Assembly: GCF_057098645.1 (NCBI RefSeq)
Contig: NZ_CM169472.1
Length of the DNA stretch: 64,000 nt
Direction: 5' to 3' (one strand)
Positions within the stretch are counted from its first letter, which is position 1; every line of letters begins with the position of its first letter. The notes beneath the pieces were generated by a model. It saw only the letters and a list, made by a program, of their open reading frames with translations. It had not been told where the DNA came from and searched no databases. Of the stretch, positions 390 to 38,939 are shown in pieces. Made by a program: the position numbers and the translations under genes.

Positions 390-506
390 GAGCGATGGTT
401 CCTGAAACGTGCAGTGAATTGTGAACCTCTCTCCTTACGAAGAGAGTGAGGGTGAGGCGTAAATTTCCTCACCCTGATCCTCTCCCGCAGAAGAGGAATA
501 AAGCCG

Positions 507-896
507 TTACTCGTCTTCTAACAATGCTTCGTATGCGGTCGCATCCAGCAGTGATTCCAGTTCGCTTTCATCGCTGGCTTTGATTTTGAAAATCCAGCCG
601 CCTGCATACGGTTCGCTGTTCACCAGTTCCGGGGAATCGCTCAGTACGTCGTTTACCGCCACGATTTCACCGCTTACTGGCGCATAAATGTCTGACGCCG
701 CTTTTACCGATTCGGCAACCGCGCAGTCATCGCCCGCGCTAACCGTCGCGCCCACTTCCGGCAGGTCAACAAACACCATATCGCCCAACAACTCCTGAGC
801 GTGTTCGGTGATGCCAACGGTATAAGTGCCGTCGGCTTCTTTACGCAGCCATTCGTGTTCTTTGCTGTATTTCAGTTCTGCTGGTACGTTGCTCAT
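507..896 (-). CDS. gcvH: glycine cleavage system H protein (lipoyl carrier)
   Basis: ORF 507..899; [19 protein letters not shown]... 129 aa from second Met. Confidence 0.95.
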
Positions 897-919
897 CAAT
901 CAATCTCCAAAAAAGTAAA

Positions 920-2014: not shown

Positions 2015-2461
2015 CTTGTCCTCATTGAATAAGCGGGGCTGACAACTTTTCCATGGTGAAATTATCACCACGAAACCCAGCATCGGAGCCACTCCCGGTC
2101 CCCAACGCAATCGTTCTCTTTTGCCTGAACTTACCACCGAAACAGACTGTTAACCATAAGGTAAAATTGATCATCACATTAGCTTATGGTTAAAAAATGC
2201 AAAAATCGCGACAGAATAAAAAACCAAAAAACACACCAGTTTCTATACAAAGATGATGTGATGAGAAAGTCAATTTGAATAAGACAATATTAAGAGCTAA
2301 AAAAATGTCAAAAAACACTAAATCAAAAAATCATGGCATTAGAAAATATAATGCGAAAACGGAGGTGAAATTAGTTTATTTCAAATGAGGAAAATCTCCC
2401 GGCGAAAAAACCGGGAGATGAAAGTGTGATGCGTATCAAATAAACAGCAGAAGAGAAATTT
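2015..2461 (-). promoter_or_regulatory. gcvTHP control region (AT-rich, expected GcvA/Lrp/PurR/CRP sites)
   Basis: about 450 bp AT-rich non-coding DNA upstream of gcvT; regulator sites assumed from established knowledge, not individually mapped. Confidence 0.5.
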
Positions 2462-3664
2462 TTAACGCAGCCATTCAGGCAAATCGTTTAATCCCATCGC
2501 CTGACGGATAAGTTGTGGCTTAACGCCAGGAAGCGTGTCGGCCAGTTTCAAACCAATATCACGCAGCAGTTTTTTCGCCGGATTGGTACCGGAAAACAGA
2601 TCGCGGAATCCCTGCATACCAGCCAGCATCAGCGCCGCGCTGTGCTTGCGGCTACGTTCATAGCGGCGCAGGTAAATGTACTGCCCGATGTCTTTACCCT
2701 GACGATGCAACCGTTTCAGTTCAGCAATCAGCTCTGCGGCGTCCATAAAGCCGAGATTAACGCCCTGCCCCGCCAGTGGGTGAATGGTATGCGCGGCGTC
2801 GCCCACCAGCGCCAGACGATGTGCGGCAAACTGGCGCGCATAACGCCCCGTCAGCGGGAACACCTGACGCTCGCTCTCAACCTTGCATAAGCCCAGGCGA
2901 TTATCAAAAGCGATATTTAACGCGCGATTAAATTCGTCTTCCCCTGCCTGCTGCATCCGCTGCGCTTCCTCTGGCGACAGCGACCAGACAATCGAGCAAA
3001 GATGCGGATCGCTAAGCGGTAAAAAGGCCAGAATGCCTTCGCCGTGGAAAACCTGCCGCGCCACCGCATCATGCGGTTCTTCCGTGCGTATGGTCGCTAC
3101 CAGCGCGTGATGCTGATAATCCCAGAAAGTCAGCGGAATATCGGCTTTGTTGCGCAACCAGGAATTAGCGCCGTCCGCGCCAATCACCAGACGCGCCGTT
3201 AACATACTGCCATCTTTCAGCGTCAGGAAGGTTTCGTTTTCTCCCCAGGCGACCTGCTGTAATTCTGCGGGGGCCAACAGAGTGATATCTGACGACTGCT
3301 GCGCTTTGTTCCACAGCGCGTAGTGAATCACTGAGTTTTCAACGATATGCCCAAGATGGCTATAGCCCATGCTTTGATCGTCAAACGAAATGTGACCAAA
3401 GCTGTCTTTGTCCCACACTTCCATACCGTGATAACAGCTGGCTCGGCGAGAGAGAATGTCCTGCCAGACGCCAAGACGGGTGAGTAATTTTTCGCTGGCG
3501 GCATTGATAGCCGAAACGCGCAGTTGTGGTGGTGCATCCGCCGCCAGAGGTTCCGGTACGCGCTGCTCCAGTACGGCAACGCGTAAGCCGCTACCCTGTA
3601 AGCCGCAGGCAACCGCCAGCCCCACCATGCCGCCGCCAACAATGGCTACATCAACACTTTGCAT
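2462..3664 (-). CDS. ubiI: 2-octaprenylphenol hydroxylase UbiI (VisC), FAD monooxygenase
   Basis: 400 aa; MQSVDVAIVGGGMVGLAVACGL Rossmann FAD motif. Confidence 0.93.
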   Translation of the reverse strand: MQSVDVAIVGGGMVGLAVACGLQGSGLRVAVLEQRVPEPLAADAPPQLRVSAINAASEKLLTRLGVWQDILSRRASCYHGMEVWDKDSFGHISFDDQSMGYSHLGHIVENSVIHYALWNKAQQSSDITLLAPAELQQVAWGENETFLTLKDGSMLTARLVIGADGANSWLRNKADIPLTFWDYQHHALVATIRTEEPHDAVARQVFHGEGILAFLPLSDPHLCSIVWSLSPEEAQRMQQAGEDEFNRALNIAFDNRLGLCKVESERQVFPLTGRYARQFAAHRLALVGDAAHTIHPLAGQGVNLGFMDAAELIAELKRLHRQGKDIGQYIYLRRYERSRKHSAALMLAGMQGFRDLFSGTNPAKKLLRDIGLKLADTLPGVKPQLIRQAMGLNDLPEWLR

Positions 3665-3686
3665 TGTTTATTCCTTAAAACCGCCT

Positions 3687-4865
3687 TCAACGCGCCACCC
3701 AACCGAGGGTGCGCTGCGCCAGCACATCGCGTGCCGGGGTGAATAATTCCATCGTCATCAGCCCGATGTTGCGCCCGACAACCAGCGGCGTCCAACGGTT
3801 GGCAAAAAGATGTACAAGGCTGTCCGTGACGCCAATGGTTGCTTCGCGATCGCTCTGTCGACGCTGCTGATAACGACACAATACGCCGTAATCACCCATG
3901 TCTTCTCCGCGCTCCTGCGCCTGAGTCAGGGTTTCCGCAAGACTCATGACATCTCGCATACCGAGGTTGAACCCTTGCCCGGCAATCGGGTGCAGGGTTT
4001 GCGCCGCATTGCCCACCAGCACGGTACGATGGGTAATAGATCTGGCGGCGTGGGTTAACGCCAGCGGATAAGCACTGCGTTTACCAGCGTGGGTAATTTT
4101 CCCAAGTCGCCAGCCAAAGGCCGACTGGAGTTCACGGCAAAACTTCTCGTCGCTCCACGACAGCACCTCTTCGCGCCGTTCCAGTGGATGACACCAGACC
4201 AGCGAACAGCGTCCGTCAGACATCGGCAACATCGCCAGCGGGCCATGTTGCGTAAAGCGTTCAAACGCGCGGCCTTCGTGCGCAACAGAAGTCGCAACGT
4301 TGGCAATCACTGCCAGTTGTTCGTAAGGCTCCTGCTGCCAGTCAACGCCGCACACAGTGGCTAACGCTGAATGGGTGCCATCAGCGGCTACCAGCACGCG
4401 GCCCGTCAGCGTCTCGCCACACTCCAGCGTCACTTCAACATGACTCTGAGTACGGGCAACGTTAGCCACGCGATCCGGGCAATGCAGCGTTACGCCAGGT
4501 GCTTTGCGCAGCAATGCAAACAGCCGTTGCCCGACATTGTGCAATTCGACAACCTGCCCCAGCGCCGCCAGTTGGTAATCTTCTGCGGCGAGGGTGACGA
4601 ATCCGGCATGACCACGATCGCTGACATGCACGGTAGTGATGGCGGTTGCGCAATCAGCCAGAGATTGCCAGACGCCGATGCGCGCCAGTTGCTGACAGGT
4701 CCCCGCCGCTAGAGCAATAGCTCGTCCATCAAAGCCCGGATGAGCATGTGACTCTGGCGCGGTCGCTTCAATCAAATGTACCGGCAGCGCTCCGTGACTT
4801 AACCGGGAAATAGCCAGCGCCAGCGTCGCGCCCGCCATGCCGCCACCGACGATGATTACGCTCAT
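3687..4865 (-). CDS. ubiH: 2-octaprenyl-6-methoxyphenol hydroxylase UbiH
   Basis: 392 aa; MSVIIVGGGMAGATLALAIS FAD motif. Confidence 0.93.
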   Translation of the reverse strand: MSVIIVGGGMAGATLALAISRLSHGALPVHLIEATAPESHAHPGFDGRAIALAAGTCQQLARIGVWQSLADCATAITTVHVSDRGHAGFVTLAAEDYQLAALGQVVELHNVGQRLFALLRKAPGVTLHCPDRVANVARTQSHVEVTLECGETLTGRVLVAADGTHSALATVCGVDWQQEPYEQLAVIANVATSVAHEGRAFERFTQHGPLAMLPMSDGRCSLVWCHPLERREEVLSWSDEKFCRELQSAFGWRLGKITHAGKRSAYPLALTHAARSITHRTVLVGNAAQTLHPIAGQGFNLGMRDVMSLAETLTQAQERGEDMGDYGVLCRYQQRRQSDREATIGVTDSLVHLFANRWTPLVVGRNIGLMTMELFTPARDVLAQRTLGWVAR

Positions 4866-6187
4866 TGCTTTCTCGCAGCTGCCATCAACGCTTCGATTTC
4901 TTCCGGCTTTTTCACCACGCTGGCGGTGAGGTTTTCGTTACCGGTTTCGGTAATCACAATGTCGTCTTCAATACGAATGCCGATACCGCGATATTGTTCT
5001 GGCACTTCTGCATCCGGCGCAATATACAGCCCTGGCTCTACGGTCAGTACCATGCCCGGTTCCAGAATGCGCGAGCGATCCTGACCATAAACACCCACGT
5101 CATGGACATCCAGTCCTAACCAGTGGCTAAGGCCATGCATAAAGAAAGGACGATGGGCGTTCTGAGCGATCAGTTCATCAACATCACCTTTCAGGATGCC
5201 GAGTTTTACCAGGCCGCTAACCATGATGCGCACCACTTCACCGGTGACTTCCTGAATGGAAGTTCCCGGACGATACAGGCGCAGGCTGGTTTCGAGAGAC
5301 TCCAGCACAATGTCGTAGATTTCACGCTGAGCCTGAGTGAATTTGCCGTTGACCGGGAAGGTGCGGGTAATATCGCCAGCGTAACCTTTGTATTCGCAAC
5401 CCGCGTCAATCAACACCAGATCGCCGTCGCGCAGTTCACACTCGTTTTCGGTGTAATGCAGAATGCAGCCGTTTTCACCGCTGCCGACAATGGTGTTATA
5501 GGAAGGATAGCGCGCGCCGTGGCGGTTAAATTCGTGGTGAATTTCGCCTTCCAGGTGGTACTCGAACATTCCCGGACGGCATTTTTCCATCGCCCGGGTA
5601 TGCGCCAGGGCGGTGATTTCACCCGCGCGGCGAAGTACGGCAATCTCTTCCGGCGATTTGAACAGGCGCATTTCATGAACAATGGGACGCCAGTCGATCA
5701 TCGTTGCCGGCGCGGTGAGATTTTGCCGCGAACCTTTACGCAGTTTCTCAAGCGCGCTGTTCACGATTTCATCAGCATATGCATATTCGCCCTGGGCGTG
5801 GTAAACCACATCCAGACCATTAAGTAGTTGATAAAGTTGCTGATTAATTTCGCTGAATGCCAGTGCGCGGTCAACGCCCAGTTTCTCTGGCGCGGCATCC
5901 TGACCTAAACGACGGCCAAACCAGATCTCCGCCGTCAGGTCGCGAACGCGGTTAAACAGAACGCTGTGGTTATGAGTGTCATCGCTTTTAATCAGCACCA
6001 GCACCGCTTCCGGTTCGTTAAAGCCGGTGAAGTACCAGAAGTCACTGTTCTGACGATAGGGGTATTCGCTGTCGGCGCTACGTGTTACTTCTGGTGCAGC
6101 AAAAATCAGCGCGGCGCTGCCGGGTTGCATTTGCTCCACCAGGGCCTGACGGCGACGCTGAAACTCTTGCCGGGATATCTCACTCAT
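4862..6187 (-). CDS. pepP: Xaa-Pro aminopeptidase (aminopeptidase P II)
   Basis: ORF 4862..6400 trimmed to MSEISRQEFQRRRQAL (441 aa); 4-bp overlap with ubiH start. Confidence 0.93.
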   Translation of the reverse strand: MSEISRQEFQRRRQALVEQMQPGSAALIFAAPEVTRSADSEYPYRQNSDFWYFTGFNEPEAVLVLIKSDDTHNHSVLFNRVRDLTAEIWFGRRLGQDAAPEKLGVDRALAFSEINQQLYQLLNGLDVVYHAQGEYAYADEIVNSALEKLRKGSRQNLTAPATMIDWRPIVHEMRLFKSPEEIAVLRRAGEITALAHTRAMEKCRPGMFEYHLEGEIHHEFNRHGARYPSYNTIVGSGENGCILHYTENECELRDGDLVLIDAGCEYKGYAGDITRTFPVNGKFTQAQREIYDIVLESLETSLRLYRPGTSIQEVTGEVVRIMVSGLVKLGILKGDVDELIAQNAHRPFFMHGLSHWLGLDVHDVGVYGQDRSRILEPGMVLTVEPGLYIAPDAEVPEQYRGIGIRIEDDIVITETGNENLTASVVKKPEEIEALMAAARKQ

Positions 6188-6212
6188 AACACTCTCCTTA
6201 CGTTTTTTGTTT

Positions 6213-6791
6213 TTAGTGTAGAGTCGGTTTTTGTACTTCTGGCGCGGTCGGTTGCGGATGAGTAAAGGTGTCGTGGCATAACAGCGCGGCAACACGGACG
6301 TACTCGATGATCTCTTCAAGCGACATTTCAAGCTCTTCCTGATCTTCGTCTTCGTCGTAGCCCAGCTGCGCGATGTTACGCAGATCGTCGATGGCTTCAC
6401 CGGTTTCTCCGGTCACTTTGTCCAGCTTCGGTTGCGTAACGCCAAGACCAAGCAGGAAGTGATTGACCCAACCTGCCAGTGCATCAGCCCGATCGAAAAC
6501 GCTGACATCATCGCCATCAGGCAGATAAAGCTGAAAAAGGAAGCCGTCATCCTGCAGGGCATCGCTGGTGGCAGAGTGCATTTTACGCAGTGCCTGTGCC
6601 AGCTCATGACCGAAAGCCATGCCTTCGTTCGTCAGGTCGTGAAGTAGCGGCAGCCATGAGCTGTCATCGTTACCGCCACATATCATCCCACTGATTAAAC
6701 CATGCATCTCAGCAGGGGTCAGACCCGTCCCTTGTTGGTTCAGATACTGGTTCATTTCGTTGTAACCAGGCATTTCGTTCTGTATAGACAT
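6213..6791 (-). CDS. ygfB: UPF0149 family protein YgfB
   Basis: ORF 6213..6797; [17 protein letters not shown]; acidic C-terminal region. Confidence 0.88.
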
Positions 6792-8728: not shown

Positions 8729-8916
8729 CCGTTACAGCCCTGTGCTGTCCTGCCATCGTAAATCCCCATTAAATAAACACAACGCATTGATCTGACTGTG
8801 ATTTATTTTCTGGAGCAGACTCGCAAAGTAGAATGCGCAACGCGGCAACGGTGTGGAGAAGGGATAAAAAAACGGGCAAGTCAGTGACCTGCCCGTTGAT
8901 TTTCAGAGAAGGGGAA

Positions 8917-10149
8917 TTAGTACAGCAGACGGGCGCGAATGGTACCCGGAATAGCTTTCATTGCCTGCAGCGCTTTTTCGGCAACGTCTTCGTCGGCTTC
9001 AATATCAATAACCACATAACCCATCTGGGCGGAAGTTTGTAGATATTGCGCGGCGATGTTGACGCCCTGCTCGGCGAAGATTTTGTTCAGCGCAGTTAGC
9101 ACGCCCGGACGGTTTTCGTGGATGTGCATCAGACGACGCCCACCGTGCAGTGGCAGCGAGACTTCCGGGAAGTTCACCGCAGAGAGCGTTGAGCCATTGT
9201 CAGAATACTTGATCAATTTACCCGCAACTTCCAGGCCGATATTCTCCTGCGCTTCCTGAGTCGAACCGCCAATGTGTGGCGTCAGAAGGACATTGTCGAA
9301 TTCACACAGCGGAGAGGTAAATGGATCGCTATTGGTCGCTGGTTCCGTCGGGAATACGTCGATTGCCGCCCCCGCCAGATGTTTGCTCGCCAGCGCATCA
9401 CACAGCGCCGGAATATCCACCACAGTACCGCGCGAGGCATTAATCAGCAGCGAGCCGGGCTTCATTAGTGAAATCTCTTTCGCACCCATCATATTTTTGG
9501 TGGACGGATTCTCTGGTACATGCAGACTCACCACATCGCTCATATTCAGCAGGTCAGAAAGATGCTGTACCTGAGTGGCGTTGCCCAGCGGCAGTTTATT
9601 TTCAATATCATAAAAGTAAACATACATTCCCAGCGATTCAGCCAGAATGCCCAATTGCGTACCAATATGACCGTAGCCGATGATACCCAGCTTTTTGCCG
9701 CGCGCTTCAAAAGACCCCGCCGCCAGTTTGTTCCACACGCCACGGTGCGCTTTAGCATTGGCTTCCGGCACGCCGCGCAATAGCAGCAGCAGTTCGCCAA
9801 TCACCAGCTCCGCAACAGAGCGCGTATTTGAGAACGGTGCGTTAAATACCGGGATCCCGCGCTTTGCCGCCGCATCCAGATCAACCTGGTTTGTTCCGAT
9901 ACAGAAACAGCCAATAGCGACCAGCTTTTCTGCGGCGTTGATCACGTCTTCAGTCAGATGGGTACGGGATCGCAGGCCGATGAAGTGGGCATCGCGGATG
10001 GATTCTTTTAATTGTTCATCATCCAGCGCGCCTTTGTGAAATTCGATGTTGGTGTAACCAGCTGCACGAAGGCTTTCCAGCGCCTTTTGGTGCACGCCTT
10101 CTACCAGCAGAAACTTAATCTTGTCTTTCTCCAGCGATACCTTTGCCAT
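8917..10149 (-). CDS. serA: D-3-phosphoglycerate dehydrogenase
   Basis: 410 aa; MAKVSLEKDKIKFLLVEGVHQKALESLRAAGYTNIEFHKGALDDEQLKESIRDAHFIGLRSRTHL. Confidence 0.97.
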   Translation of the reverse strand: MAKVSLEKDKIKFLLVEGVHQKALESLRAAGYTNIEFHKGALDDEQLKESIRDAHFIGLRSRTHLTEDVINAAEKLVAIGCFCIGTNQVDLDAAAKRGIPVFNAPFSNTRSVAELVIGELLLLLRGVPEANAKAHRGVWNKLAAGSFEARGKKLGIIGYGHIGTQLGILAESLGMYVYFYDIENKLPLGNATQVQHLSDLLNMSDVVSLHVPENPSTKNMMGAKEISLMKPGSLLINASRGTVVDIPALCDALASKHLAGAAIDVFPTEPATNSDPFTSPLCEFDNVLLTPHIGGSTQEAQENIGLEVAGKLIKYSDNGSTLSAVNFPEVSLPLHGGRRLMHIHENRPGVLTALNKIFAEQGVNIAAQYLQTSAQMGYVVIDIEADEDVAEKALQAMKAIPGTIRARLLY

Positions 10150-10404
10150 TTACCCAATCCTGTCTTTTGAAATGTTGTGTGCGGATTTGCGTCCGCCTTT
10201 CAACATATCAAAAAATAATATTGCGGCAATATGAACGTTTGCGTCGCGATGTTGAGGAAATATCACGCAAAGGCCATTCTTGGATGAATATGCTGGTTTA
10301 GAGGATTTATTTAGAGCAATCGACAATAGCCAGGTAAAAACGTGACACATGTCACCAAATTTAATGAAGAGAATTTTTTTAACGGGGGAGGTTCCCCCGT
10401 CAGA

Positions 10405-11064
10405 TCATTTCACAATGGTTTTGACACCGTCAGGTGTGCCAATCAGCGCAACGTCCGCGCCACGGTTAGCAAACAAGCCAACAGTCACCACGCCAGGAAT
10501 CGCATTTATGGCGTTTTCCATCGCTATCGGGTCAAGGATTTCCATGCCGTGGACGTCGAGGATCACGTTGCCATTATCGGTCACCACGCCCTGACGGTAT
10601 TCCGGACGACCGCCCAGTTTCACCAGCTGGCGCGCCACTGCACTACGTGCCATCGGAATAACTTCTACTGGCAGCGGGAATTTGCCCAGAATATCAACCT
10701 GCTTGGAGGCGTCGGCAATACAGATAAATTTTTCCGCAACCGAAGCAATGATTTTTTCACGGGTCAGCGCCGCGCCGCCGCCTTTGATCATTTGCATGTG
10801 GCCGTTGATTTCATCTGCGCCATCAACGTAGATGCCAAGGCTGTCGACTTCGTTGAGATCAAAAACGTGAATGCCGAGGCTTTTCAGTTTTTCAGTGGAA
10901 GCATCTGAACTGGAAACGGCCCCTTCAATCTGGCCTTTCATCGTGCCGAGCGCGTCAATAAAGTGTGCGGCGGTGGAACCTGTGCCTACACCAACAATGG
11001 TGCCGGGCTGAACATACTGAAGTGCCGCCCATCCTACTGCTTTTTTCAATTCATCCTGCGTCAT
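10405..11064 (-). CDS. rpiA: ribose-5-phosphate isomerase A
   Basis: ORF 10405..11136 trimmed to [35 protein letters not shown] (219 aa). Confidence 0.95.
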
Positions 11065-11119
11065 GATCGTTTCGCCTGTGGTATGAAATTTCACACGCAT
11101 TATATACAAAAAAAGCGAT

Positions 11120-21641: not shown

Positions 21642-22718
21642 ATGACGACCAATAAAATTACAGATGGAACTGAGATGACATTCAAACACTTTTTACTTTC
21701 TCTGGTATCAGGATTACTTCTGATATCTTCCCACAACGTTGCCGCTGAAAAAATTCTTCGTTATACAGACCATGAACCCTACGGGGGAATGCGTACACAA
21801 ATAATTAAAGAGATATTTTTTGCAGAAATTGAAAAAGAGTCGCAGGGGCGTTTGAAAATCGAACCACACTGGAACGGTGAAACCGCCATCAGCTATGACG
21901 CTCTGACGACAATAAGTGATGGTAGCAAAGCTGATATGGGTATAGTGGTACCGGAATACACAGCGAAACAATTACCGCTTCATCAAATCTTCAAGAGCTT
22001 TGCTATTGGCCCGGATCATGGAGCCAGTCAGGTAGAATTCTTTCGTCGCGTATATGCGGAAATTCCCGAATTTAACGCTGAACTTGAGCGTAACAATATC
22101 GTGAATTTACAGTTTTTCCTTGGCTACCCGGTAGGCTTTTTCTCTACCAGGCCCATTGATAAATTGACTGCACTTCAGGGAACCACCTGGCGAACAGCCA
22201 GTTTCTGGCATCGGGCTTATTTAACTCATACGGGGGCAAAAACCGTAACCTTACCGTGGAATGAGCAAATTACGACAGCACTCCGCGACGGACAACTCGA
22301 TGGCCTAATGGTCAATCTTGATAGCGGATATGACATCCATGCTGAACGTGCTGCGCCGAATGTGTTGCTCTCCCCTTCGCTCTGGCTTGGTCATGTTTAT
22401 CTGTTGGTAATGAATAAACAAACGTGGGAAAACCTTGATAACAGAGATCGTGAGGCTATTCAACGAGCGGCCATTACAACCGAGAAAGCGCTGGGCAAGG
22501 CATTAGATAACAACCTGATCAGCATGGTAAAAACGCTTGAGCAGGAAGGTGCACAGGTTCGCTATTTGAAAAAATCAGAGCTGGACGCCTGGCAGAAAGC
22601 GATTGGTTATCAGCAAGAGCAAACTCAGTGGGTAGAAAAGCAAAATAATGAAGGCGTGGAGAAAGCCGGGGGAGTCATGCAAAAAGTTGCCAATATACTT
22701 GATGAAACAATGCGTTAA
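21642..22718 (+). CDS. orphan TRAP-type (DctP family) periplasmic solute-binding protein; likely start at second in-frame Met 21675
   Basis: 358 aa; signal peptide MTFKHFLLSLVSGLLLISSHNVAAEK; DctP-like pattern incl. conserved Arg (TTWRTA) and RDGQLDG...NLD; no DctQ/DctM genes adjacent. Confidence 0.65.
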   Translation: MTTNKITDGTEMTFKHFLLSLVSGLLLISSHNVAAEKILRYTDHEPYGGMRTQIIKEIFFAEIEKESQGRLKIEPHWNGETAISYDALTTISDGSKADMGIVVPEYTAKQLPLHQIFKSFAIGPDHGASQVEFFRRVYAEIPEFNAELERNNIVNLQFFLGYPVGFFSTRPIDKLTALQGTTWRTASFWHRAYLTHTGAKTVTLPWNEQITTALRDGQLDGLMVNLDSGYDIHAERAAPNVLLSPSLWLGHVYLLVMNKQTWENLDNRDREAIQRAAITTEKALGKALDNNLISMVKTLEQEGAQVRYLKKSELDAWQKAIGYQQEQTQWVEKQNNEGVEKAGGVMQKVANILDETMR

Positions 22719-26332: not shown

Positions 26333-27352
26333 TTACCTGAAAGCAACAGTAGCCATAGCTAACGTCGTGTCGAGCATTCGGTTAGCAAAGCCCCATTCGT
26401 TATCGCACCAGACCAACGTTTTGATCAGGTGTGCGCCACTGACCCGGGTTTGGGTGCCATCGACAATGGCACTGTGCGGATCGTGGTTAAAATCTACAGA
26501 GACCAACGGCAATTCCGTATAGTCAACTATACCATGAAATGCACCTTGTGCTGCTTTTTGCAGCAACAGGTTGACTTCATTGGCTTTTACAGGTTTCTTC
26601 ACCGTCACGCTTAAATCGATTGCCGTCACATTTATGGTTGGCACACGTACCGCAATCGCTTCAAAGCGATCGTTAAATTGCGGAAAAAATCGTGTGATAC
26701 CGGCGGCCAGTTTAGTATCGACCGGAATGATCGACTGGCTGGCTGCCCGGGTGCGACGCAGGTCAGGATGGTATGCATCAATAACCTGTTGATCGTGCAT
26801 GGCGGAGTGAATTGTGGTCACAGTGCCGGACTCAATACCGTACGCATCATCTAACAATTTGATGACGGGAATTATGCAATTCGTGGTACAGGAAGCGTTA
26901 GAAACGATGCGGTGTTCCGCACGAAGTTGATCCTGATTGACGCCGTAAACAACGGTCGCGTCGAGATCGTTACTGCCAGGATGTGAAAAGAGCACTTTTT
27001 TGGCCCCGGCGGCAATATGCGCTTCGCCATGCTCGCGGGAGCCATATACGCCGGTGCAGTCGAGTACTACATCAACGCCAAGTTCACGCCAGGGGAGCGA
27101 TTGCAGTGAACGTTCATGCAATACGCGGATGGCGTCATCACCGACAAAAAGTTGATCGCGTTCCTGTCGTACTTCCCATGCAAAACGGCCATGGCTGGTG
27201 TCATATTTCAACAAATGCGCCATGCCCGCAGCATCCGCCAGTTCGTTGATTGCCACCACGGTAATTTCCGCCCGGCGTCCGGATTCATACAAAGCACGAA
27301 CCACATTACGCCCGATGCGACCGAAGCCATTTATCGCTACGCGTACGGTCAT
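26333..27352 (-). CDS. epd: D-erythrose-4-phosphate dehydrogenase
   Basis: ORF 26333..27436 trimmed to [37 protein letters not shown] (339 aa). Confidence 0.95.
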
Positions 27353-27579
27353 AGATCTCCTGCAAGGTTTTCCCTGAGCAAATTTGCCAGACAGAGTAAT
27401 CCAGCAAATCGTCCGGGGAAACCTTACCTGTCGCAAACTGCGACTGATTGGTTAATTGTCGAACATTTAATCGACTGAAACGCTTCAGCTAGGATAAGCG
27501 AAACGTGGAATAAAAGGAATGATTGTCCAGTCAAAGAAAACAATTATCTGACTTACGTCACGTTTTCAGCCCCGCCCCT

Positions 27580-27595
27580 GTGGAATTTATTCCAC
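27580..27595. promoter_or_regulatory. perfect 16-bp palindrome GTGGAATTTATTCCAC, candidate operator upstream of PPC/ECF operon
   Basis: 7-bp perfect inverted arms, 2-bp spacer; half-site GTGGAAT recurs at about 27505; about 130 bp upstream of first operon gene. Confidence 0.4.
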
Positions 27596-27723
27596 TTTGC
27601 AGAATCACGAATAAGCGTAGCAAAATCTTTTCGTTGTGCCGTCACAAACCCTGACTTATATCAGAATATGACTGATGCAGCGTCGATATTATCCGCAATA
27701 CGTCCGAGTTTCGGAGTACTCCA

Positions 27724-28155
27724 ATGATGACATTGCCCTACCCATATTCTTCCTCCGCACGCTTTTACGCACTGCGCCTCCTCCCCGGGCAGGAAGTTTT
27801 TTCCCAGCTACACGCTTTTGCACAGCAGCAGCAACTTCATGCCGCCTGGATTGCAGGCTGTACCGGTAGCCTGACTGACATCGCCTTGCGCTATGCCGGG
27901 CAAGAAGGCACCACGCTCCTGAACGGTACATTCGAAGTGATCTCACTAAACGGCACGTTGGAACAGAGTGGTGAGCATCTTCATCTCTGCGTTTCCGATC
28001 CACACGGCACGATGCTTGGCGGTCATATGATGCCCGGCTGTACCGTGCGGACCACGCTTGAACTGGTGATCGGTAGCCTTGAGGAACTGGCGTTTAGCCG
28101 CCAACCTTGCGCGCTTTCTGGTTACGACGAGTTGCATATTTCCCCCGTTAAATAA
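27724..28155 (+). CDS. PPC (DUF296) domain protein, first gene of ECF-transporter operon
   Basis: 143 aa; FEVISLNGTL...HLHLCVSDPHGTMLGGHMMPG...LELVIGSL matches PPC/DUF296 core pattern; GGAG RBS. Confidence 0.7.
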   Translation: MMTLPYPYSSSARFYALRLLPGQEVFSQLHAFAQQQQLHAAWIAGCTGSLTDIALRYAGQEGTTLLNGTFEVISLNGTLEQSGEHLHLCVSDPHGTMLGGHMMPGCTVRTTLELVIGSLEELAFSRQPCALSGYDELHISPVK

Positions 28156-28177
28156 CTACTTTCAGAGAGGTTTTCTT

Positions 28178-28756
28178 ATGGCGCGTAGCCACTTTTCCAG
28201 TCAGGCACTGGTGTTGATCGTTATATCTATCGCCATCAATATGATCGGCGGGCAACTGGCCAGCATGGTCAAATTACCTATATTTCTCGACTCCATCGGC
28301 ACACTTATTAGCGCGGTACTGCTTGGTCCGGTGATCGGAATGCTGACCGGCTTACTGACCAATTTACTCTGGGGATTGCTGACCGACCCGATCGCCGCCG
28401 CATTTGCACCCGTCGCGATGGTCATCGGCCTGGTCGCCGGTTGGCTGGCGCGAGCGGGTTGGTTTCGCACCCTGCCAAAAGTCGTTGTCAGCGGCGTGAT
28501 TATTACGCTTGCGGTAACGGTCGTCGCTGTACCGCTGCGTACTGCGCTGTTCGGCGGTGTCACCGGTAGCGGAGCCGATTTGTTCGTTGCCTGGATGCAC
28601 TCTATGGGGCAAAACCTGGTGGAGTCGGTGGCGATTACGGTGATAGGCGCAAACCTGGTCGATAAAATTCTTACAGCGGTGATTGTCTGGCTTTTACTGC
28701 GCCAGCTGCCGATTCGCACCACGCGCCATTTTCCGGCAATGGCTGCCGTGCGCTAA
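28178..28756 (+). CDS. ECF transporter substrate-specific (S) component, substrate unknown
   Basis: ORF 28079..28756 trimmed to MARSHFSSQALVLIVISIAINMIGG (192 aa), about 6 TM helices; AGAGAGG RBS 7 nt upstream; 22 nt after PPC gene stop. Confidence 0.7.
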   Translation: MARSHFSSQALVLIVISIAINMIGGQLASMVKLPIFLDSIGTLISAVLLGPVIGMLTGLLTNLLWGLLTDPIAAAFAPVAMVIGLVAGWLARAGWFRTLPKVVVSGVIITLAVTVVAVPLRTALFGGVTGSGADLFVAWMHSMGQNLVESVAITVIGANLVDKILTAVIVWLLLRQLPIRTTRHFPAMAAVR

Positions 28757-29464
28757 ATGCATCCGTTTACATCCTTAACGCTGTGGGCGCTGGCGGCCTG
28801 CACCACGCTTATCCTGCCCGCGCAGACCATTTTGCCGATCTATAGCGCGGCGACCTTTTTTTGCCTTATTGCGCTAAAGGCCACGCGGCGGCGGGCAAAA
28901 TATGTCGTCTGGCTGATGTTCTCGCTGGGAGCCGGGCTGTGGCTGGTACACGGTGGCTGGCTGACAGAATGGCTAAGCGGCACGCCACGCTCGCCTGAAC
29001 GGTGGACGCATGCTATTACGCTCTGGTTGCGCATTCTGGCTATCGTTTCAACCTCACAGTTGTGGATGCAGTACGTCCCCGTACAGCGCTTTATCCGCGC
29101 CCTGTTCGCCTCCCGCCTGCCGCCGGGCGTCGCTTATCTGTTTGCCGGGCCGTTATTGGTCGTTGAGCAATTAAAACGGCAATTAGCGATTATTCATGAA
29201 GCACAGCGTGCGCGCGGCGTGCCGCTGGATGAGGGCTGGTATCAGCGTTTACGTGCGATGCCCGCGTTAATTATTCCGCTAACACACAATGCGCTAAACG
29301 ATCTTGCTGTCCGCGGTGCGGCGCTGGATATGCGGGCATTTCGGATCCACAACCGACGAACAACGTTGTGGGCACCAGCCGATAGCACCCTACAACGCGT
29401 AGCGCGTTACACCATTATCTTGCTGATGCTGACAGAATTCGGAGCGTGGATATGGTTACGTTAG
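28757..29464 (+). CDS. ECF transporter transmembrane (T) component (EcfT/CbiQ family)
   Basis: 235 aa multi-TM; start codon immediately follows S-gene stop (TAAATG). Confidence 0.7.
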   Translation: MHPFTSLTLWALAACTTLILPAQTILPIYSAATFFCLIALKATRRRAKYVVWLMFSLGAGLWLVHGGWLTEWLSGTPRSPERWTHAITLWLRILAIVSTSQLWMQYVPVQRFIRALFASRLPPGVAYLFAGPLLVVEQLKRQLAIIHEAQRARGVPLDEGWYQRLRAMPALIIPLTHNALNDLAVRGAALDMRAFRIHNRRTTLWAPADSTLQRVARYTIILLMLTEFGAWIWLR

Positions 29465-30129
29465 AACAGTTCCGTTATTGCCCGACACACTCAACGCATC
29501 CTCCGTTCTGTTATGACTTTCACTATGTCAAACCGGGGATGGTCGCCATCTTTGGTGACAACGGCAGTGGCAAAAGTACGCTGGCACAGCTGATGGCGGG
29601 CTGGTATCCGGACTTTCTGCCAGGAGAGATAACAGGCACGGGGACGCTCCTCGGTACGCCCATTGGGCATCTCCCGCTTAATGAACAATCCGCCACCATC
29701 CAGCTCGTCCAGCAATCGCCCTATTTGCAGCTCTCCGGCTGTACCTTTAGCGTGGAAGAAGAAGTTGCCTTTGGGCCAGAAAATCTGTGTCTTGCTGAAA
29801 AAGAGATTATGGCGAGGATTGATGCCGCCCTGACTCTGACCGAGTGCCAGCCGTTGCGCCATCGTCACCCGGCAACACTCTCTGGTGGAGAGACACAGCG
29901 CGTGGTCATCGCCTGCGCCATCGCGATGCAGCCAAAACTATTAATTCTTGATGAAGCCTTTAGCCGCCTGACGCCGCAGGCCAGCGAAATGCTGTTGCAG
30001 CGCTTACAACACTGGGCGTTTGAACGTGGTTCGCTGATTATTCTTTTTGAACGTCATCGCACACCTTTCCTGAACTACTGCCAGCAAGCGTGGCAATTGC
30101 AAAACGGAGCGCTCCAGCCACTATGTTAA
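29452..30129 (+). CDS. ECF/ABC transporter ATPase 1 (canonical motifs)
   Basis: ORF 29446..30129; Walker A GDNGSGKST, Q-loop, signature LSGGETQRV, Walker B LLILDEA; overlaps T gene end. Confidence 0.8.
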   Translation: MVTLEQFRYCPTHSTHPPFCYDFHYVKPGMVAIFGDNGSGKSTLAQLMAGWYPDFLPGEITGTGTLLGTPIGHLPLNEQSATIQLVQQSPYLQLSGCTFSVEEEVAFGPENLCLAEKEIMARIDAALTLTECQPLRHRHPATLSGGETQRVVIACAIAMQPKLLILDEAFSRLTPQASEMLLQRLQHWAFERGSLIILFERHRTPFLNYCQQAWQLQNGALQPLC

Positions 30130-30800
30130 CGTTAAATCAGATATCTTATCGCTGGCCTGGCGCGGCAACGGATTGTCTTTGCGACATTTCTCTGCAACTC
30201 AAACAAGGTGAATGGTTGGCGTTGACCGGTGACAATGGCGCAGGGAAATCGACGCTGTTACGAGTAATGGCAGGTCTTCTTACGCCCACAGCCGGTACGG
30301 TTATGCTGCAACAACAGGCGATGAAAAACCTGAAAAACCGCCAGCGCGCGGCAAAGATTGGCGTACTGTTTCAGGAAGCGGAAAACCAACTTTTTCACAG
30401 CACCGTCGCTGACGAGATCGCATTTGGTTTGAAACTGCAAAAATGCCCGGCGGATGAAATCACTCAACGTACCCATGCTGCCCTACAATGTTGTCAGTTA
30501 GCAGACACTGCCAGCGCGCACCCGTTGGATCTGCATAGTGCGCAGCGACGGATGGTCGCCGTCGCCTGCCTGGAAGCACTCTCTCCGCCACTATTGCTGC
30601 TGGACGAGCCGAGTCGGGATTTTGACGAAAATTGGTTGAGCGTGTTTGAAAACTGGCTGGAGAAGTGCCGCCAGCGAGGCACGAGCGTCGTAGCAATCAG
30701 TCATGACGCCGCATTTACCCGGCGTCATTTCTCTCGTGTGGTGCGACTGGAAGATGGTCTAATCAGGATCATTAATCCACCAGACGATATTCACCCGTAG
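30123..30800 (+). CDS. ECF/ABC transporter ATPase 2 (degenerate signature motif)
   Basis: ORF 30090..30800 trimmed to MLTLNQISYRWPG; Walker A TGDNGAGKST, Walker B LLLLDEP, H-loop ISHD, signature replaced by LHSAQRR; ATGTTAA start/stop overlap with ATPase 1. Confidence 0.8.
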   Translation: MLTLNQISYRWPGAATDCLCDISLQLKQGEWLALTGDNGAGKSTLLRVMAGLLTPTAGTVMLQQQAMKNLKNRQRAAKIGVLFQEAENQLFHSTVADEIAFGLKLQKCPADEITQRTHAALQCCQLADTASAHPLDLHSAQRRMVAVACLEALSPPLLLLDEPSRDFDENWLSVFENWLEKCRQRGTSVVAISHDAAFTRRHFSRVVRLEDGLIRIINPPDDIHP

Positions 30801-31485
30801 CGGTCATCATTAAGGTCAAATTTGCAGGCAGACTCTCTTCCAGCACCCGGCGAACATTCGGCCCGTCGGTACGGTCATAAAAAGCTTCTGCGTCTGCCAG
30901 CGATAACCCTCCCGCCAGCTTGCGCCCCACCAGTCGTTCCCGCAACGCAGTAGCTGGCGCATTGATAAAGATCGAGAAATCACAAAATTGCGCAAGCTGG
31001 CACCACTTCTCGTCGTCCAGCAACAACCAGTTTCCTTCAACGATGACGAGTGGTGCGGTAACGTGCAACGCATCTTCAACAGGATCATGCTTTTGTCGAT
31101 CATACTGCGGCCACGTACAATCCCCTTCCACGACCTGGCGCAGATTTTCCGCCAGTTTCGCTACGTCAAATGTCTCTGGTGCGCCTTTGAAGGGGCGCAA
31201 TTGATGCGCATCCAGCCAGCTATTGTAATGGTGAAAACCATCCATCGGCAGCGTCTGAATAGCGGGCAGTTCCGGGTCTTGTTGCGCGAGATATTCCCAG
31301 AAGGTGGTTAGGGTAGATTTACCCGTCCCCGGCGGAGCGCAAAGAAAAACCACGGTTCGGCGCTGCGGATTTACCGTCTGTAAGGCCGCCAGCATACGCA
31401 GCAACGGTTTATGCACGCGTTCTATCTCTTCATCATGGTACTGCGCTTGCACGTTCAGCCCATTCACCGTTAATTCAATTTTCAC
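30772..31485 (-). CDS. yggC: P-loop NTPase YggC (uridine kinase-like)
   Basis: 237 aa; MKIELTVNGLNVQAQYHDEEIERVHKPLLRMLAAL...FLCAPPGTGKSTL. Confidence 0.9.
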   Translation of the reverse strand: MKIELTVNGLNVQAQYHDEEIERVHKPLLRMLAALQTVNPQRRTVVFLCAPPGTGKSTLTTFWEYLAQQDPELPAIQTLPMDGFHHYNSWLDAHQLRPFKGAPETFDVAKLAENLRQVVEGDCTWPQYDRQKHDPVEDALHVTAPLVIVEGNWLLLDDEKWCQLAQFCDFSIFINAPATALRERLVGRKLAGGLSLADAEAFYDRTDGPNVRRVLEESLPANLTLMMTATGEYRLVD

Positions 31486-31991
31486 GGCGTTAATTCCTTT
31501 AAGGTGGTCGTTACTGCCAGCGTCAGCGCCGTTTTGACCATTCCGCTAAAACGCGCCTCTGACCAGACGGCGAAATCGGCGAACTTCATCGCTTTCAACG
31601 CGTCATAGAGCATCGCATTGCGGGTTATGCTATTGACGTTGCTGATAAAATCCCAGGTCATGTCATCGGCAAATCCGGGCGCTTCATCCTGTTCGTTCAG
31701 GTAATGCCAGAACTGGGAAAAATGAGTGATATCGGCGTACAGCCATTTATCCATTTTCCCCAGCGCATAAATCAAACGCAGCGCAACATCAATATCGTCA
31801 AGCGGGCCGCTTTGGGCAAGTAACGGCTTCACTGCATATTCCACGATCTCTTCATCGTTATCGACAAACAGCGACGGCAGAAACTGGCGTATTCCCTGGA
31901 GCAAAATAGAATGCGCAGTTTTCATAAATGAAAATAAATTGTCCTGTGCATCCAGTTGCTCAAGCACATCATCTTCTGTCAGCGTCGCCAT
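31482..31991 (-). CDS. yggD: MtlR-like putative regulator YggD
   Basis: 169 aa; MATLTEDDVLEQLDAQDNLFSFMKTAHSILLQG. Confidence 0.88.
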   Translation of the reverse strand: MATLTEDDVLEQLDAQDNLFSFMKTAHSILLQGIRQFLPSLFVDNDEEIVEYAVKPLLAQSGPLDDIDVALRLIYALGKMDKWLYADITHFSQFWHYLNEQDEAPGFADDMTWDFISNVNSITRNAMLYDALKAMKFADFAVWSEARFSGMVKTALTLAVTTTLKELTP

Positions 31992-32012
31992 TGGTCTTCC
32001 GATAGATCACCA

Positions 32013-32978
32013 TCAATGCAGGGAGTCTATTATATTACACGTTTGGTCCGCGCCGCCGATCAGTAATGTCTGCGTCCGCACCCCATTCGCCGTCTGTTGG
32101 ATACCGTTCACCAGCTCGCCGCCCGTGACGCCCGTAGCGCTAAAGAGGATATCGTTCCCCCTCACCAGTTCGTCGAGCGAGTACACACGGTTAACGTCAA
32201 CGCCCATTGCCTTGCAACGCTTGCGCTCCTGCTCTGCAATCTGCCGATTTTCCGTGTAATCCCCTTTAGCCTGACAAAAATCGATTAATTCCGCCTGCAT
32301 ATCTCCGCCTAACGCTTTGACTGCACAGGCAGAAATCACGCCTTCCGGCGCGCCGCCGATGGTGTACATCACGTCGTAAGGATTATCCTGCCAGCAGGTC
32401 AGCACGCTGGCGGCGACATCGCCATCCGGCAGGGCAAAAACTTTCACCCCCAGCTGTGTTGCTTCCTCAATCGCGGCACTCAGGCGCGGTTTATCCAGCG
32501 TAACCATGCGCAGCTTGTCCAGCGGTTTACCTAACGCCCGCGCCACGTTACGCAAGTTGTCCGCCAGAGGCAAAGACAGATCAATCGCCCCGGCAGCCAG
32601 TCGATTAACAACCAGCTTTTTCATATACATATCGGGCGCATGTAACAGGCTATCTCGAGGGGCGAAAGCCATGACCGCCAGCGCATTGCTCTGCCCCATC
32701 GCCACCATCCGCGTGCCTTCAATGGGATCAACCGCGATATCGACTTCTGGCCCATCGCCTTTGCCCACCTCTTCGCCAATCCACAGCATCGGCGCATGGT
32801 CAATTTCTCCTTCGCCGATAACCACTCGTCCACGAAAAGCGACGTCGTTTAATGCCTGGCGCATCGCGGTGACCGCCAGGCCATCAATTTTATTTTTGTC
32901 GCCACATCCGGTTTGCGGCCAGGCAGCCAACGCTGCCTGTTCCGTAACGCGAAATAATGGCCACGCCAGGGACATCAT
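32013..32978 (-). CDS. yggF: fructose-1,6-bisphosphatase class II paralogue (GlpX-like)
   Basis: 321 aa; MMSLAWPLFRVTEQAALAAWPQTGCGDKNKIDGLAVTAMRQ. Confidence 0.9.
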   Translation of the reverse strand: MMSLAWPLFRVTEQAALAAWPQTGCGDKNKIDGLAVTAMRQALNDVAFRGRVVIGEGEIDHAPMLWIGEEVGKGDGPEVDIAVDPIEGTRMVAMGQSNALAVMAFAPRDSLLHAPDMYMKKLVVNRLAAGAIDLSLPLADNLRNVARALGKPLDKLRMVTLDKPRLSAAIEEATQLGVKVFALPDGDVAASVLTCWQDNPYDVMYTIGGAPEGVISACAVKALGGDMQAELIDFCQAKGDYTENRQIAEQERKRCKAMGVDVNRVYSLDELVRGNDILFSATGVTGGELVNGIQQTANGVRTQTLLIGGADQTCNIIDSLH

Positions 32979-36126: not shown

Positions 36127-36550
36127 AAATTATCCTTATTTTTAGGGTACCGTCCGGCGGTAAAAATAAAATACTCGTGCGGTTTAATGAAAGCAATTGG
36201 GTACGCGAGAAGAAAAACCCCATAAACCAAAATAATAAAACCTTAAATAACAACAATATGAAATTGATATTTTTAAAGTCAACTTTGTATTTGTTATGTT
36301 TATCACAAAATCAACATTTTGTTTGTTATTGTATTTGTGATGCATATCTCTATTTATTTATTGAATGTTCGAAAACATACTTTTCTAATACAATGTTTTT
36401 TCGCTATACCCCTTTATAGATTCTGAATTCTCACCTGTCGGCTGTTTTCTCCTCATCTCATGTGACATATTCCCACACTTTACTCAAGGAAGATTGTCAT
36501 GAAAGCACTGAACCGCCCCGGGTTTCCTGGAGAGTATTTTATCTGTGAAC

Positions 36551-37438
36551 TCAGGCTGCCAGATCATTATTTCCGATGGAAGCATAATAAGCTTTTTCTG
36601 CTTCTGCCGGAGGAATATGGCCCAGCCTTTCCAGCAATCGTCGATTGTTATACCAGTCCACCCACGTGAGTGTGGCCAGTTCCACTTCTGCACGGTTTTT
36701 CCAGCTCTTACGGTGTATTACCTCCGCTTTGTAAAGACCATTGATGCTCTCCGCCATCGCGTTGTCATACGAGTCGCCAGTACTCCCTGTTGATGCCAGT
36801 AATCCGGCTTCCTTAAGCCGCTGCGTGTAGGCCAGCGATACATACTGAGAACCTTTATCACTGTGATGGATTGTGCCGGACGGCCGACGGGCCCACAACG
36901 CCTGCTCCAGTGCATCCAGCACGAATGTTGTTTCCATGGATGATGAGACCTGCCATCCCACGATGTATCCGGCGAACACATCAATGATGAACGCCACATA
37001 AACGAAGCCCCGCCATGTGCTGACGTAAGTAAAATCAGCCACCCACAGCTGGTCAGGTCGTTCTGCCACGAACTGACGGTTTACGCGGTCGCCTGCGGCA
37101 ACGGCTTTCCGGCTGATGGTCGTACGGACCTTTTTACCCCGGAGAACACCGGCAAGTCCCATAACCGCCATGAGACGTGCCACAGTGCATCTGGCCACTC
37201 TGATACCTTCCCGTAACAACTGACGCCAGACTTTACGCACACCGTATACCTTGTGATTTTCATCGTATACGCGCTGTATCTCTCTCTTCAGCCAGTCATC
37301 GCGCTGAGCACGGGCACTGCGTTTATCAGGATGATGTCGCTGTTGCTGACAGTGGTAATACGTTGACGGGGCAATATGCAGTTCACTGCATACCGGTCCG
37401 ACCCCGTACTGCTCACGCAGCTTATCCAGCAGCGGCAT
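36551..37438 (-). CDS. IS629 transposase OrfB (DDE catalytic part; expressed as OrfAB via -1 frameshift at A-run)
   Basis: 295 aa; DDE-type integrase core; orfA stop and orfB ATG share one nucleotide (TAATG) next to AAAAAA slippery run. Confidence 0.9.
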   Translation of the reverse strand: MPLLDKLREQYGVGPVCSELHIAPSTYYHCQQQRHHPDKRSARAQRDDWLKREIQRVYDENHKVYGVRKVWRQLLREGIRVARCTVARLMAVMGLAGVLRGKKVRTTISRKAVAAGDRVNRQFVAERPDQLWVADFTYVSTWRGFVYVAFIIDVFAGYIVGWQVSSSMETTFVLDALEQALWARRPSGTIHHSDKGSQYVSLAYTQRLKEAGLLASTGSTGDSYDNAMAESINGLYKAEVIHRKSWKNRAEVELATLTWVDWYNNRRLLERLGHIPPAEAEKAYYASIGNNDLAA

Positions 37439-37764
37439 TATTTTTTCCAGAGGCGGTCGAACTCCGCCTTCGCAAAATAAGCGGAAGCCTGGCGAAGGAT
37501 ATCGTTACTGCGGCGCAGTTCACGATTTTCACGTTCCAGCTCTTTCAGACGCTGACGTTCAGCGGTGGTGAGTCCACCATCACCACTCCCGGTATCCCGC
37601 TCATGCTGGCGAACCCAGACACGCAGAGTCTCCGGCGTACAGCCAATCTTTGGGGCAATGGAACAAATTGCCGCCCACTGTGAGTCATATTCATCCTGAC
37701 TTTCCAGAACCATACGAATCGCCCGCTGACGGACTTCGGGGGAAAAACGAGTATTTTTAGTCAT
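37438..37764 (-). CDS. IS629 transposase OrfA (HTH part)
   Basis: 108 aa; [57 protein letters not shown]. Confidence 0.9.
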
Positions 37765-38719
37765 CCTGTTTACCTCTTTCTCAGGGAGTTTAGTCTCCAG
37801 GATTTCCGGGGCGGTTCACACCTGTTTCATTAACCTCATTTCGCCCACAAAAATCTCTTGCTATCGCCATTGGCGTGCTTGCCGTGGTTGTGCTGCCATT
37901 TCTCTCGTATTACACCGTTAATGAAGGTGAACGCGGCATTTTGCTGCGCTACGGAAAAATCGTAAAAGTTGCCGAGCCGGGTCTGGGTTTTAAGATCCCG
38001 TTTATGGAAAGCGTGGAGAAAATTTCCACGCGTAATCAGGCTGTGGTCTATCAGGGATTACAGGCCTACAGCCGCGACCAGCAACCGGCACAAATGACAG
38101 TATCAGTCAGCTTCCACATTAAACCTTCAGAAGCAGGCGCGGTTTATACCACCTACAACACCATTGAAGCATTAAAAGATCGTCTGATTGTCCGTCAGTT
38201 GCCAACTCAACTGGAGAACGTTTTCGGCCAATATACCGCCATCAGCGCTGTACAGGATCGTACAAAACTGGTTCAGGATCTGCAAAATGCCATGCGCAAA
38301 GCCGTTGTTGGGCCAGTGGTAATTGACGGGGTCCAGATTGAAAATATTGATTTTTCTGACGCTTATGAAAAGTCGATTGAAGACCGAATGAAAGCAGAAG
38401 TCGCCATTGCCACGCGTAAGCAAAATCTGGAAACAGAGAAAATCCAGGCGCAAATAGCGGTAACTCAGGCCCAGGCAGAAGCAGACAGTAAACTGGCGGC
38501 AGCCAAAGCAGAAGCGGAAACTATTCGCGTAAGAGGCGCGGCAGAGGCTGAAACTATTCGTTTAAAAAGTGCGGCTGAAGCAGAAGCAATCCGCCTGCGC
38601 GGTGAAGCTCTGCGGGATAATCCCGGACTTGTAGCCCTCACCACTGCCGAACGTTGGGACGGTAAACTGCCCGATACCATGATCCCCGGCAGCACAGTTC
38701 CGTTTATCTCTACTAAGTA

Positions 38720-38748
38720 AAAAAAGGGCCGCTTTCGCGGCCCTTGAG
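38720..38748 (+). terminator. rho-independent-like hairpin after SPFH gene (AAAAAGGGCCGCTTTCGCGGCCCTT)
   Basis: GC hairpin directly after stop codon; same 21-nt hairpin recurs at 38897-38925. Confidence 0.55.
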
Positions 38749-38756
38749 AGTGATGG

Positions 38757-38890
<134 letters not shown>

Positions 38891-38896
38891 TAATCT

Positions 38897-38925
38897 AAAG
38901 GGCCGCTTTCGCGGCCCTTCTCACA
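38897..38925 (-). terminator. tktA terminator hairpin (AAGGGCCGCTTTCGCGGCCCTT)
   Basis: hairpin immediately downstream of tktA stop; bidirectional. Confidence 0.6.
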
Positions 38926-38939
38926 AAACGTCTTACTGA

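Follow-up and report, generated by a model that had tools for sequence, protein, structure and literature searches.

Transcripts that run towards each other have to be ended in little space, and bidirectional intrinsic terminators between convergent genes are pervasive in E. coli. Convergent genes may also share their last codons. In E. coli K-12, 75 convergent overlapping pairs have been described and ascribed to stop-codon movement (Huvet & Stumpf 2014, PMC4161906); it is in the convergent orientation that long genuine overlaps are tolerated (Palleja et al., PMC2478687), and conserved tail-to-tail overlapping pairs are on record for prokaryotes (Rogozin et al. 2002, cited in PMC2478687).

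The pair analyzed here lies in a window of 64 kb (the whole stretch of 64,000 nucleotides from contig NZ_CM169472.1, assembly GCF_057098645.1), in which the gene of an ECF-type ATPase (ATPase 2) and yggC meet tail to tail. Like the described pairs (PMC4161906), it consists of two real genes on opposite strands that share their last codons, and it also resembles them in the origin by stop-codon movement, the conservation across species and the tens of bases that are tolerated (PMC4161906, PMC2478687). Nothing essential differs from these pairs; here, the overlap is kept over several genera, its length varies, and the ATPase tail is unconstrained. The pair is annotated, but we found no discussion of it in the searchable literature, and a literature search yielded no paper on yggC together with energy-coupling factor.

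RESULTS

Genes at the locus

The ECF cluster and its convergent neighbor comprise the following genes.

27724-28155, plus strand: PPC-domain protein (family match, RefSeq)
28178-28756, plus strand: ECF S component (Pfam ECF_trnsprt)
28757-29464, plus strand: ECF T component (Pfam CbiQ)
29452-30129, plus strand: ECF ATPase 1 (Pfam ABC_tran)
30123-30800, plus strand: ECF-type ABC ATPase 2, 225 aa (ABC_tran, 2e-27; ECF ATPase models)
30772-31485, minus strand: yggC-type nucleoside/nucleotide kinase, 237 aa (NF006742, RefSeq)

The cluster (27724-30800) is divergent from epd and convergent with yggC, which is the final gene of the minus-strand string cmtB-cmtA-yggP-glpX-fumE-yggC; the start of yggC and the stop of fumE share 4 bp. 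For YggC, NF006742 gave a full-length match of 524 bits (cut-off, 402). The cluster has the same S-T-A-A' content and order as dedicated (group I) ECF operons, here preceded by the PPC-domain gene. In contrast to those operons, its ATPases are short (about 225 aa each) and score far below the EcfA equivalog cut-offs. The matches of both stop at about position 223 to 231 of EcfA models with 269 to 279 positions (29452-30800), so that both are without the usual C-terminal domain, and the scores against the EcfA/EcfA' equivalogs TIGR04520 and TIGR04521 were 150 and 145 bits (cut-offs, 330 and 315). The nearest model to the S component was the CD3073 family, with 136 bits, below the cut-off of 180. 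An Rfam scan of 27300-31600 at E ≤ 1 gave no match and thus no riboswitch or known sRNA.

Alkalibacterium loci had suggested that YggC-type kinases and ECF ATPases might be functionally linked. This was rejected: the locus there is the standard rplQ-ecfA-ecfA'-ecfT-truA housekeeping string, to which the kinase gene is merely adjacent. In E. coli A16, yggC is frameshifted, and in ABU 83972 the neighboring glpX-type gene is broken; these genomes suggest that the cmt-ygg string may be dispensable in some strains.

Coordinates and frequency of the overlap

The 3' ends of ATPase 2 and yggC share 29 bp.

30772-30800, both strands: tail-to-tail overlap including both stops (ORF list, sequence, RefSeq annotation)

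ATPase 2 ends with TAG at 30798-30800 on the plus strand, and yggC ends with TAA, read from 30774 to 30772 on the minus strand, with 23 nt between (30775-30797) that read as sense in either frame. The genes face each other with codon position 1 against codon position 1, and the wobble position of each lies opposite the partner's position 2. The RefSeq CDS ends agree (30123-30800, plus, "ABC transporter ATP-binding protein"; 30772-31485, minus, "nucleoside/nucleotide kinase family protein"). Thus, the 29-bp convergent coding overlap proposed in the initial annotation was confirmed by the ORF list, the sequence and the RefSeq ends. An earlier in-frame stop in either gene, which that annotation had considered, was not seen, and the ends were identical across thousands of independent assemblies.

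From 27400 to 31600, the sequence matches the chromosome of E. coli O145 RM9872 with 100% identity. A 241-bp junction was found, with an identity of ≥95%, in 3,318 of the 5,426 complete E. coli genomes searched. In ABU 83972 (B2), which has the most divergent junction examined, the 29-bp overlap is unchanged. Among thousands of sequences, the dominant protein clusters have 225 aa (ATPase 2) and 237 aa (YggC). The two genes therefore have what defines a convergent overlapping pair: they lie on opposite strands, both are real, and the overlap is kept in other genomes. Two of the nine convergent pairs in the 64-kb window overlap, the second being scpC/srsR (4 bp, 5395-5398). The overlap is statistically unremarkable and an ordinary case of a common class.

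Conservation across genera

One genome per species was scanned with YggC, followed by tblastn of all cluster proteins, and loci of Salmonella enterica and Atlantibacter were added from contigs encoding ATPase 2 homologues. The cluster was found at the same place and in the same orientation in E. albertii, E. whittamii, six Citrobacter species of the freundii group and C. koseri, as well as in Silvania, two Superficieibacter species, the Enterobacteriaceae MAG UBA5654 and Phytobacter. In every such locus examined (about 18 loci in at least seven genera), it lies between epd and yggC and overlaps yggC. With each gene extended to its stop, the overlap ranged from 11 to 92 bp, as follows.

Escherichia: 29 bp
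C. freundii group: 44 bp
Atlantibacter: 44 bp
Silvania: 26 bp
Salmonella: 32 bp
Superficieibacter: 41 bp
C. koseri: 68 bp
UBA5654: 92 bp
Phytobacter: 11 bp

The distance from the start of ATPase 2 to the start of yggC is nearly constant across these taxa. The proteins of the cluster are 86 to 92% (S), 71 to 84% (T) and 67 to 73% (ATPase 2) identical to those of the window across genera, and the neighboring YggC (66 to 78%) and FumE (74 to 87%) have identities of the same order. As judged from this comparison, the arrangement is older than the split of Escherichia, Salmonella, Citrobacter and their relatives. The fact that the overlap never resolves to a gap in about 18 loci could mean that it is selected rather than merely tolerated, with the related lineages of the survey amounting to few independent observations.

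A 4.5-kb contig labelled as Citrobacter sp. MAG (DXKH01000034.1) carries a version with 94 to 99% protein identity to that of Escherichia, and the same MAG holds a second, Citrobacter-like yggC locus; bin contamination is the likely reason.

Constraint within the shared bases

The alignment of ATPase 2 is strongly conserved up to ...ISHDAAFT(R/Q)RHFSRVVRL (about position 30750) and has no similarity beyond, the final 16 or so residues being not conserved. The YggC motif ...(E/M)MT..GEYR... is retained in all species, whether the cluster is present or not. The sole recurring motif in the ATPase tail, D-I/M-H/P-P ("DIHP"), sits exactly opposite the conserved GEYR of YggC, of which it is therefore an antisense shadow. 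The constraint on the shared bases comes from YggC, with none from the ATPase tail. In Escherichia, the TAG stop is the complement of the YggC codon junction GCT-ACG (Ala-Thr), and since this residue pair is lineage specific, the stop is placed elsewhere in other genera.

A free-ended ATPase 2 gene in Klebsiella

In Klebsiella pasteurii, the ECF cluster comes after epd, but the entire cmtBA-yggP-glpX-fumE-yggC string is absent and the next gene is the convergent tkt. No yggC remnant was found in the spacer. ATPase 2 of this species has 218 aa and ends with ...RVVRLEKGRLLSIS, without DIHP, its stop lying 7 codons earlier. Only 5 nt past this stop is a G+C-rich hairpin of 11 pairs, preceded by an A-tract and followed by a T-tract (z = -4.3 on either strand). 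The free-ended gene therefore stops earlier and has a bidirectional terminator. The problem of ending two converging transcripts in little space is the same in both arrangements, and the Klebsiella version solves it with a terminator of the kind that is widespread in E. coli, whereas in the window there is no space between the two genes and no element of A-tract, hairpin and U-tract at or near their overlap.

The ECF cluster in Escherichia

The initial annotation regarded the cluster as an islet abutting the 3' end of yggC. This was not upheld by the comparison: the same overlapping arrangement occurs in at least seven genera with a divergence like that of the flanking genes, the break relative to islet-free Escherichia lies not at the yggC stop but about 230 bp inside yggC, and the segment bears no marks of an inserted islet. 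In detail, neither a mobility gene nor a tRNA, flanking direct repeats or a GC anomaly was found at the cluster, whose GC content is like that of the flanks. Two features are relevant here.

27574-27600, no strand assigned: left limit of the segment that is absent in K-12-type genomes, in the epd upstream region (genome comparison)
30772-31002, minus strand: 3' part of yggC that travels with the ECF cluster, about 76 codons plus stop (comparison of islet-bearing and islet-free genomes)

The cluster occurs in 3,317 of the 5,426 E. coli genomes, and K-12 is without it. Escherichia shows three states, i.e., cluster present, internal deletion and K-12 type. Escherichia sp. MOD1-EC7003 is without about 27747-30552 of the window and Escherichia sp. 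E1V33 without about 27811-30562. The two deletions (about 2.8 kb) are independent and differ in their endpoints. Both spare the initial bases of the PPC gene and, of ATPase 2, about 240 bp at the 3' end, a stub that still overlaps an O145-type yggC.

In K-12-type genomes, 99% homology with the window extends from epd to about 27573-27600 and resumes inside yggC. The break in yggC is at nucleotide 483 or so (window, about 31003; about codon 161): nucleotides 1 to 480 are 87 to 100% identical to those of the window and nucleotides 481 to 714 are 47 to 67% identical (47 to 72% for the 231 nt downstream of the break), and the proteins are 95.6% identical before the break and 63.3% after it. In all islet-free Escherichia examined, 30772-31002 is replaced by a divergent allele (about 65 to 70% identical); the same breakpoint without the cluster was seen in K-12, A16, ET896, the E. 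coli species representative, E. fergusonii and one E. albertii. Both yggC haplotypes occur within E. coli and also within E. albertii. The crossover maps to the EGNWLLLDDEKW codons, where YggC is most conserved.

The proportion of differing synonymous sites (pS) between the window and the K-12 type is 0.18 upstream of the break and 0.80 downstream, which exceeds the 0.67 to 0.71 found between Escherichia and Citrobacter. At a pS of 0.80, the segment is therefore deeply divergent DNA rather than a fast-evolving local copy, and fast evolution of the K-12-type segment in situ was ruled out, the synonymous sites being saturated. Which of the two alleles is the aberrant one is indicated by their relatives: the cluster-linked YggC segment is 72 to 78% identical to Citrobacter, like the N-terminal part, and the K-12-type segment is at most 65% identical to every non-Escherichia YggC found. 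The cluster-linked segment thus behaves as the vertical one. A search for the donor of the K-12-type segment with a 79-aa query gave fragments only, and in a full-length search the allele was confined to Escherichia, with a best outside match of 65%. In Citrobacter, the break coincides with the overlap: between C. braakii, without the cluster, and C. freundii, with it, identity is 78 to 92% through yggC nucleotide 660, and the last 50 or so nucleotides diverge. Taken together, the comparisons indicate that the ECF cluster is ancestral rather than inserted and that its loss is secondary, through internal deletions or through foreign DNA taking its place.

A 14-nt inverted repeat (30594-30607/31013-31026, 93% complementary) adjoins the yggC breakpoint. 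It consists of the codons for the Walker-B-type motifs LLLLDE (ATPase 2) and LLLDDE (YggC) on opposite strands and is probably coincidental; it was dropped as a rearrangement substrate, since the conserved EGNWLLLDDEKW patch accounts for the crossover site.

Transcript ends

The initial annotation had further stated that the overlap leaves no intergenic room for a terminator, and in fact, a terminator and promoter scan found no promoter near the overlap and no terminator-like site at or beside it or within about 400 nt of it. The numbers of sites did not exceed those expected from shuffling; terminator-like sites in 27300-32100 numbered 4, compared to a mean of 6.0 in shuffled sequence. The overlap itself does not fold unusually on either strand relative to shuffled sequence (z = -0.7 and -0.9). 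Transcription of both operons would necessarily give complementary 3' ends.

C-rich, G-poor untranslated RNA has the composition preferred by Rho. Past each stop, within 60 to 180 nt, 78-nt windows contain 36 to 41% C with a C/G ratio of 1.5 to 2.15, and two stretches may be hinted at as Rho loading sites by this composition.

30861-30978, plus strand: C-rich, G-poor stretch past the ATPase 2 stop, C/G 1.5 to 1.8
30594-30711, minus strand: C-rich, G-poor stretch past the yggC stop, C/G 1.6 to 2.15

As in the Rho-dependent suppression of antisense and untranslated read-through in E. coli, the RNA past the stops is untranslated and C-rich here too; relative to mapped Rho systems, the likeness is one of composition. 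Given this composition, read-through is probably terminated in a Rho-dependent manner.

A hairpin within ATPase 2

One structure close to the overlap was more stable than expected, the sole strong hairpin there, and it lies within the ATPase 2 codons.

30703-30728, no strand assigned: perfect 9-bp inverted repeat with an 8-nt loop in the codons for HDAAFTRRH of ATPase 2 (sequence)

The hairpin lies 44 nt past the yggC stop on the yggC strand and has UUUCUCU after it on the ATPase strand. It has -15.6 kcal/mol in 42 nt, with a z score of about -3 on both strands. Synonymous recodings that folded as well made up 0.5% in Escherichia, 1.3% in C. freundii, 0.5% in C. werkmanii and 3% in Atlantibacter; the range over five Citrobacter, Silvania and Atlantibacter sequences was 0.5 to 5%, and Salmonella had 9%. 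No equivalent was found in C. koseri, UBA5654, Superficieibacter, Phytobacter and Klebsiella. Covariation is weak, covering one or two pairs, one of which occurs as C-G, U-A and G-C, and the conserved peptide fixes 4 of the 9 pairs. The stability relative to recodings hints that some RNA-level feature near the overlap may be selected.

DISCUSSION

We consider it likely that the overlap is an old, passively maintained tail-to-tail arrangement of two real genes without a spacer. The functional core of ATPase 2 would end almost exactly where yggC ends, and the ATPase frame would then continue into the antisense of the conserved last codons of yggC until a chance stop is met. This stop would have moved repeatedly in evolution, and it is because of this movement that the overlap would range from 11 to 92 bp. 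Each transcript would read, untranslated, into the antisense of the partner gene, and Rho would be the main factor that ends it. The hairpin within the ATPase 2 codons (30703-30728) may help in termination or shield the 3' end. With the two operons active together, pairing of the two mRNAs or collision of the polymerases would be an unavoidable but unselected side effect. The overlap is neither a bidirectional terminator site nor an island junction nor a demonstrated antisense regulator.

Could the overlap be produced by the data or by an insertion rather than inherited? Loss of a stop codon with extension of the 3' end is a frequent source of spurious convergent overlaps (PMC2478687), and one of the two stops might be wrong in the annotation or the sequence, so that the genes do not truly overlap. 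The chance of this is negligible, with identical ends in thousands of independent assemblies, dominant protein lengths of 225 and 237 aa that match these ends, and an arrangement on which the choice of start codon has no bearing. That a horizontally acquired ECF islet landed at the 3' end of yggC and left the overlap as its scar would agree with the lack of the cluster in about 39% of E. coli genomes, including K-12. Nevertheless, such an event is very improbable: at least seven genera have the same arrangement, diverged like its flanks; integrase, tRNA, direct repeat and GC anomaly are missing; the islet-free break falls within yggC at about codon 161, with the islet-free 3' segment being the aberrant one; and the internal deletions leave stubs.

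Two further possibilities concern a function in RNA synthesis. The hairpin might be a selected terminator or 3'-end-protecting element that replaces an intergenic terminator. On the yggC strand, it would stop or stabilize transcripts 44 to 70 nt past the yggC stop. This is consistent with its stability (-15.6 kcal/mol; z = -3), with the 99.5% of Escherichia synonymous recodings that it beats and the significant values in several Citrobacter and in Atlantibacter, with the pair that varies between C-G, U-A and G-C, and with its absence from Klebsiella, where a canonical terminator follows the stop. We still regard such a role as rather unlikely, since covariation is weak and limited to one or two pairs, Superficieibacter, Phytobacter, C. 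koseri and UBA5654 have the overlap but no hairpin, the lineages with the hairpin are close relatives, 4 of 9 pairs are fixed by the conserved peptide, and the yggC strand lacks a U-tract. On the ATPase strand, the U-rich tail would permit a ribosome-gated terminator that halts only untranslated ECF transcripts before they enter yggC; this version is unlikely, too, as ribosomes are expected to suppress terminators inside a translated ORF, and terminators within reach of a translating ribosome are reportedly repressed, according to one published study. The initial annotation had also predicted transcriptional interference or antisense pairing. As a selected, excludon-like device, the convergent ECF and cmt-ygg operons would repress each other, an idea that fits with an overlap never lost in about 18 loci of at least seven genera and with the lack of a canonical terminator between the genes. 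Collision at convergent pairs is also a documented termination mechanism; a 2022 bioRxiv study is said to describe polymerase collisions at convergent gene pairs in this role. We nevertheless think a selected device of this kind, acting by polymerase collision or by pairing of the complementary 3' ends, improbable: neither the length (11 to 92 bp) nor the sequence of the overlap is conserved, the K-12 type, C. braakii and Raoultella do without the ECF cluster and Klebsiella without the ygg genes, and folding of the overlap region is no stronger than that of shuffled sequence (z = -0.7 to -0.9). The sequence comparison can be explained without transcriptional interference or antisense regulation.

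The overlap as such matters little, being one more well-documented example of a common class. The locus is of use as a natural experiment, in which the same ATPase gene occurs with an overlap of 11 to 92 bp, as a deletion stub, and free-ended with a canonical terminator. The comparative series shows directly how drifting stop codons create and alter such overlaps, and also how the tail of one partner becomes the antisense shadow of a conserved motif of the other. It also corrects the picture of a variable E. coli locus, where the ECF cluster is ancestral and K-12-type strains carry a mosaic yggC with its last third from a deeply divergent source.

Other features of the window

A P4-like satellite followed by an IS3 transposase occupies 8853-20756 between argO and mscS, where K-12 has nothing; its genes include those for a primase-helicase, an Icd-like protein, ogr/Delta, a polarity suppression protein, a DEAD-box helicase and an integrase (18278-19441). 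Two more extra genes, for a hypothetical protein and a TRAP substrate-binding protein, are found at 20916-22718. Between cmtB and tkt, there is an extra segment relative to K-12 (about 36199-38936) with a prohibitin-family gene at 36499-37407, and the short repeats that flank this segment match K-12 sequence near 38757-38885. The methylmalonyl-CoA pathway region (30-6291) is in decay in this strain, as seen from a frameshift in scpA and internal stop codons in meaB and srsR.
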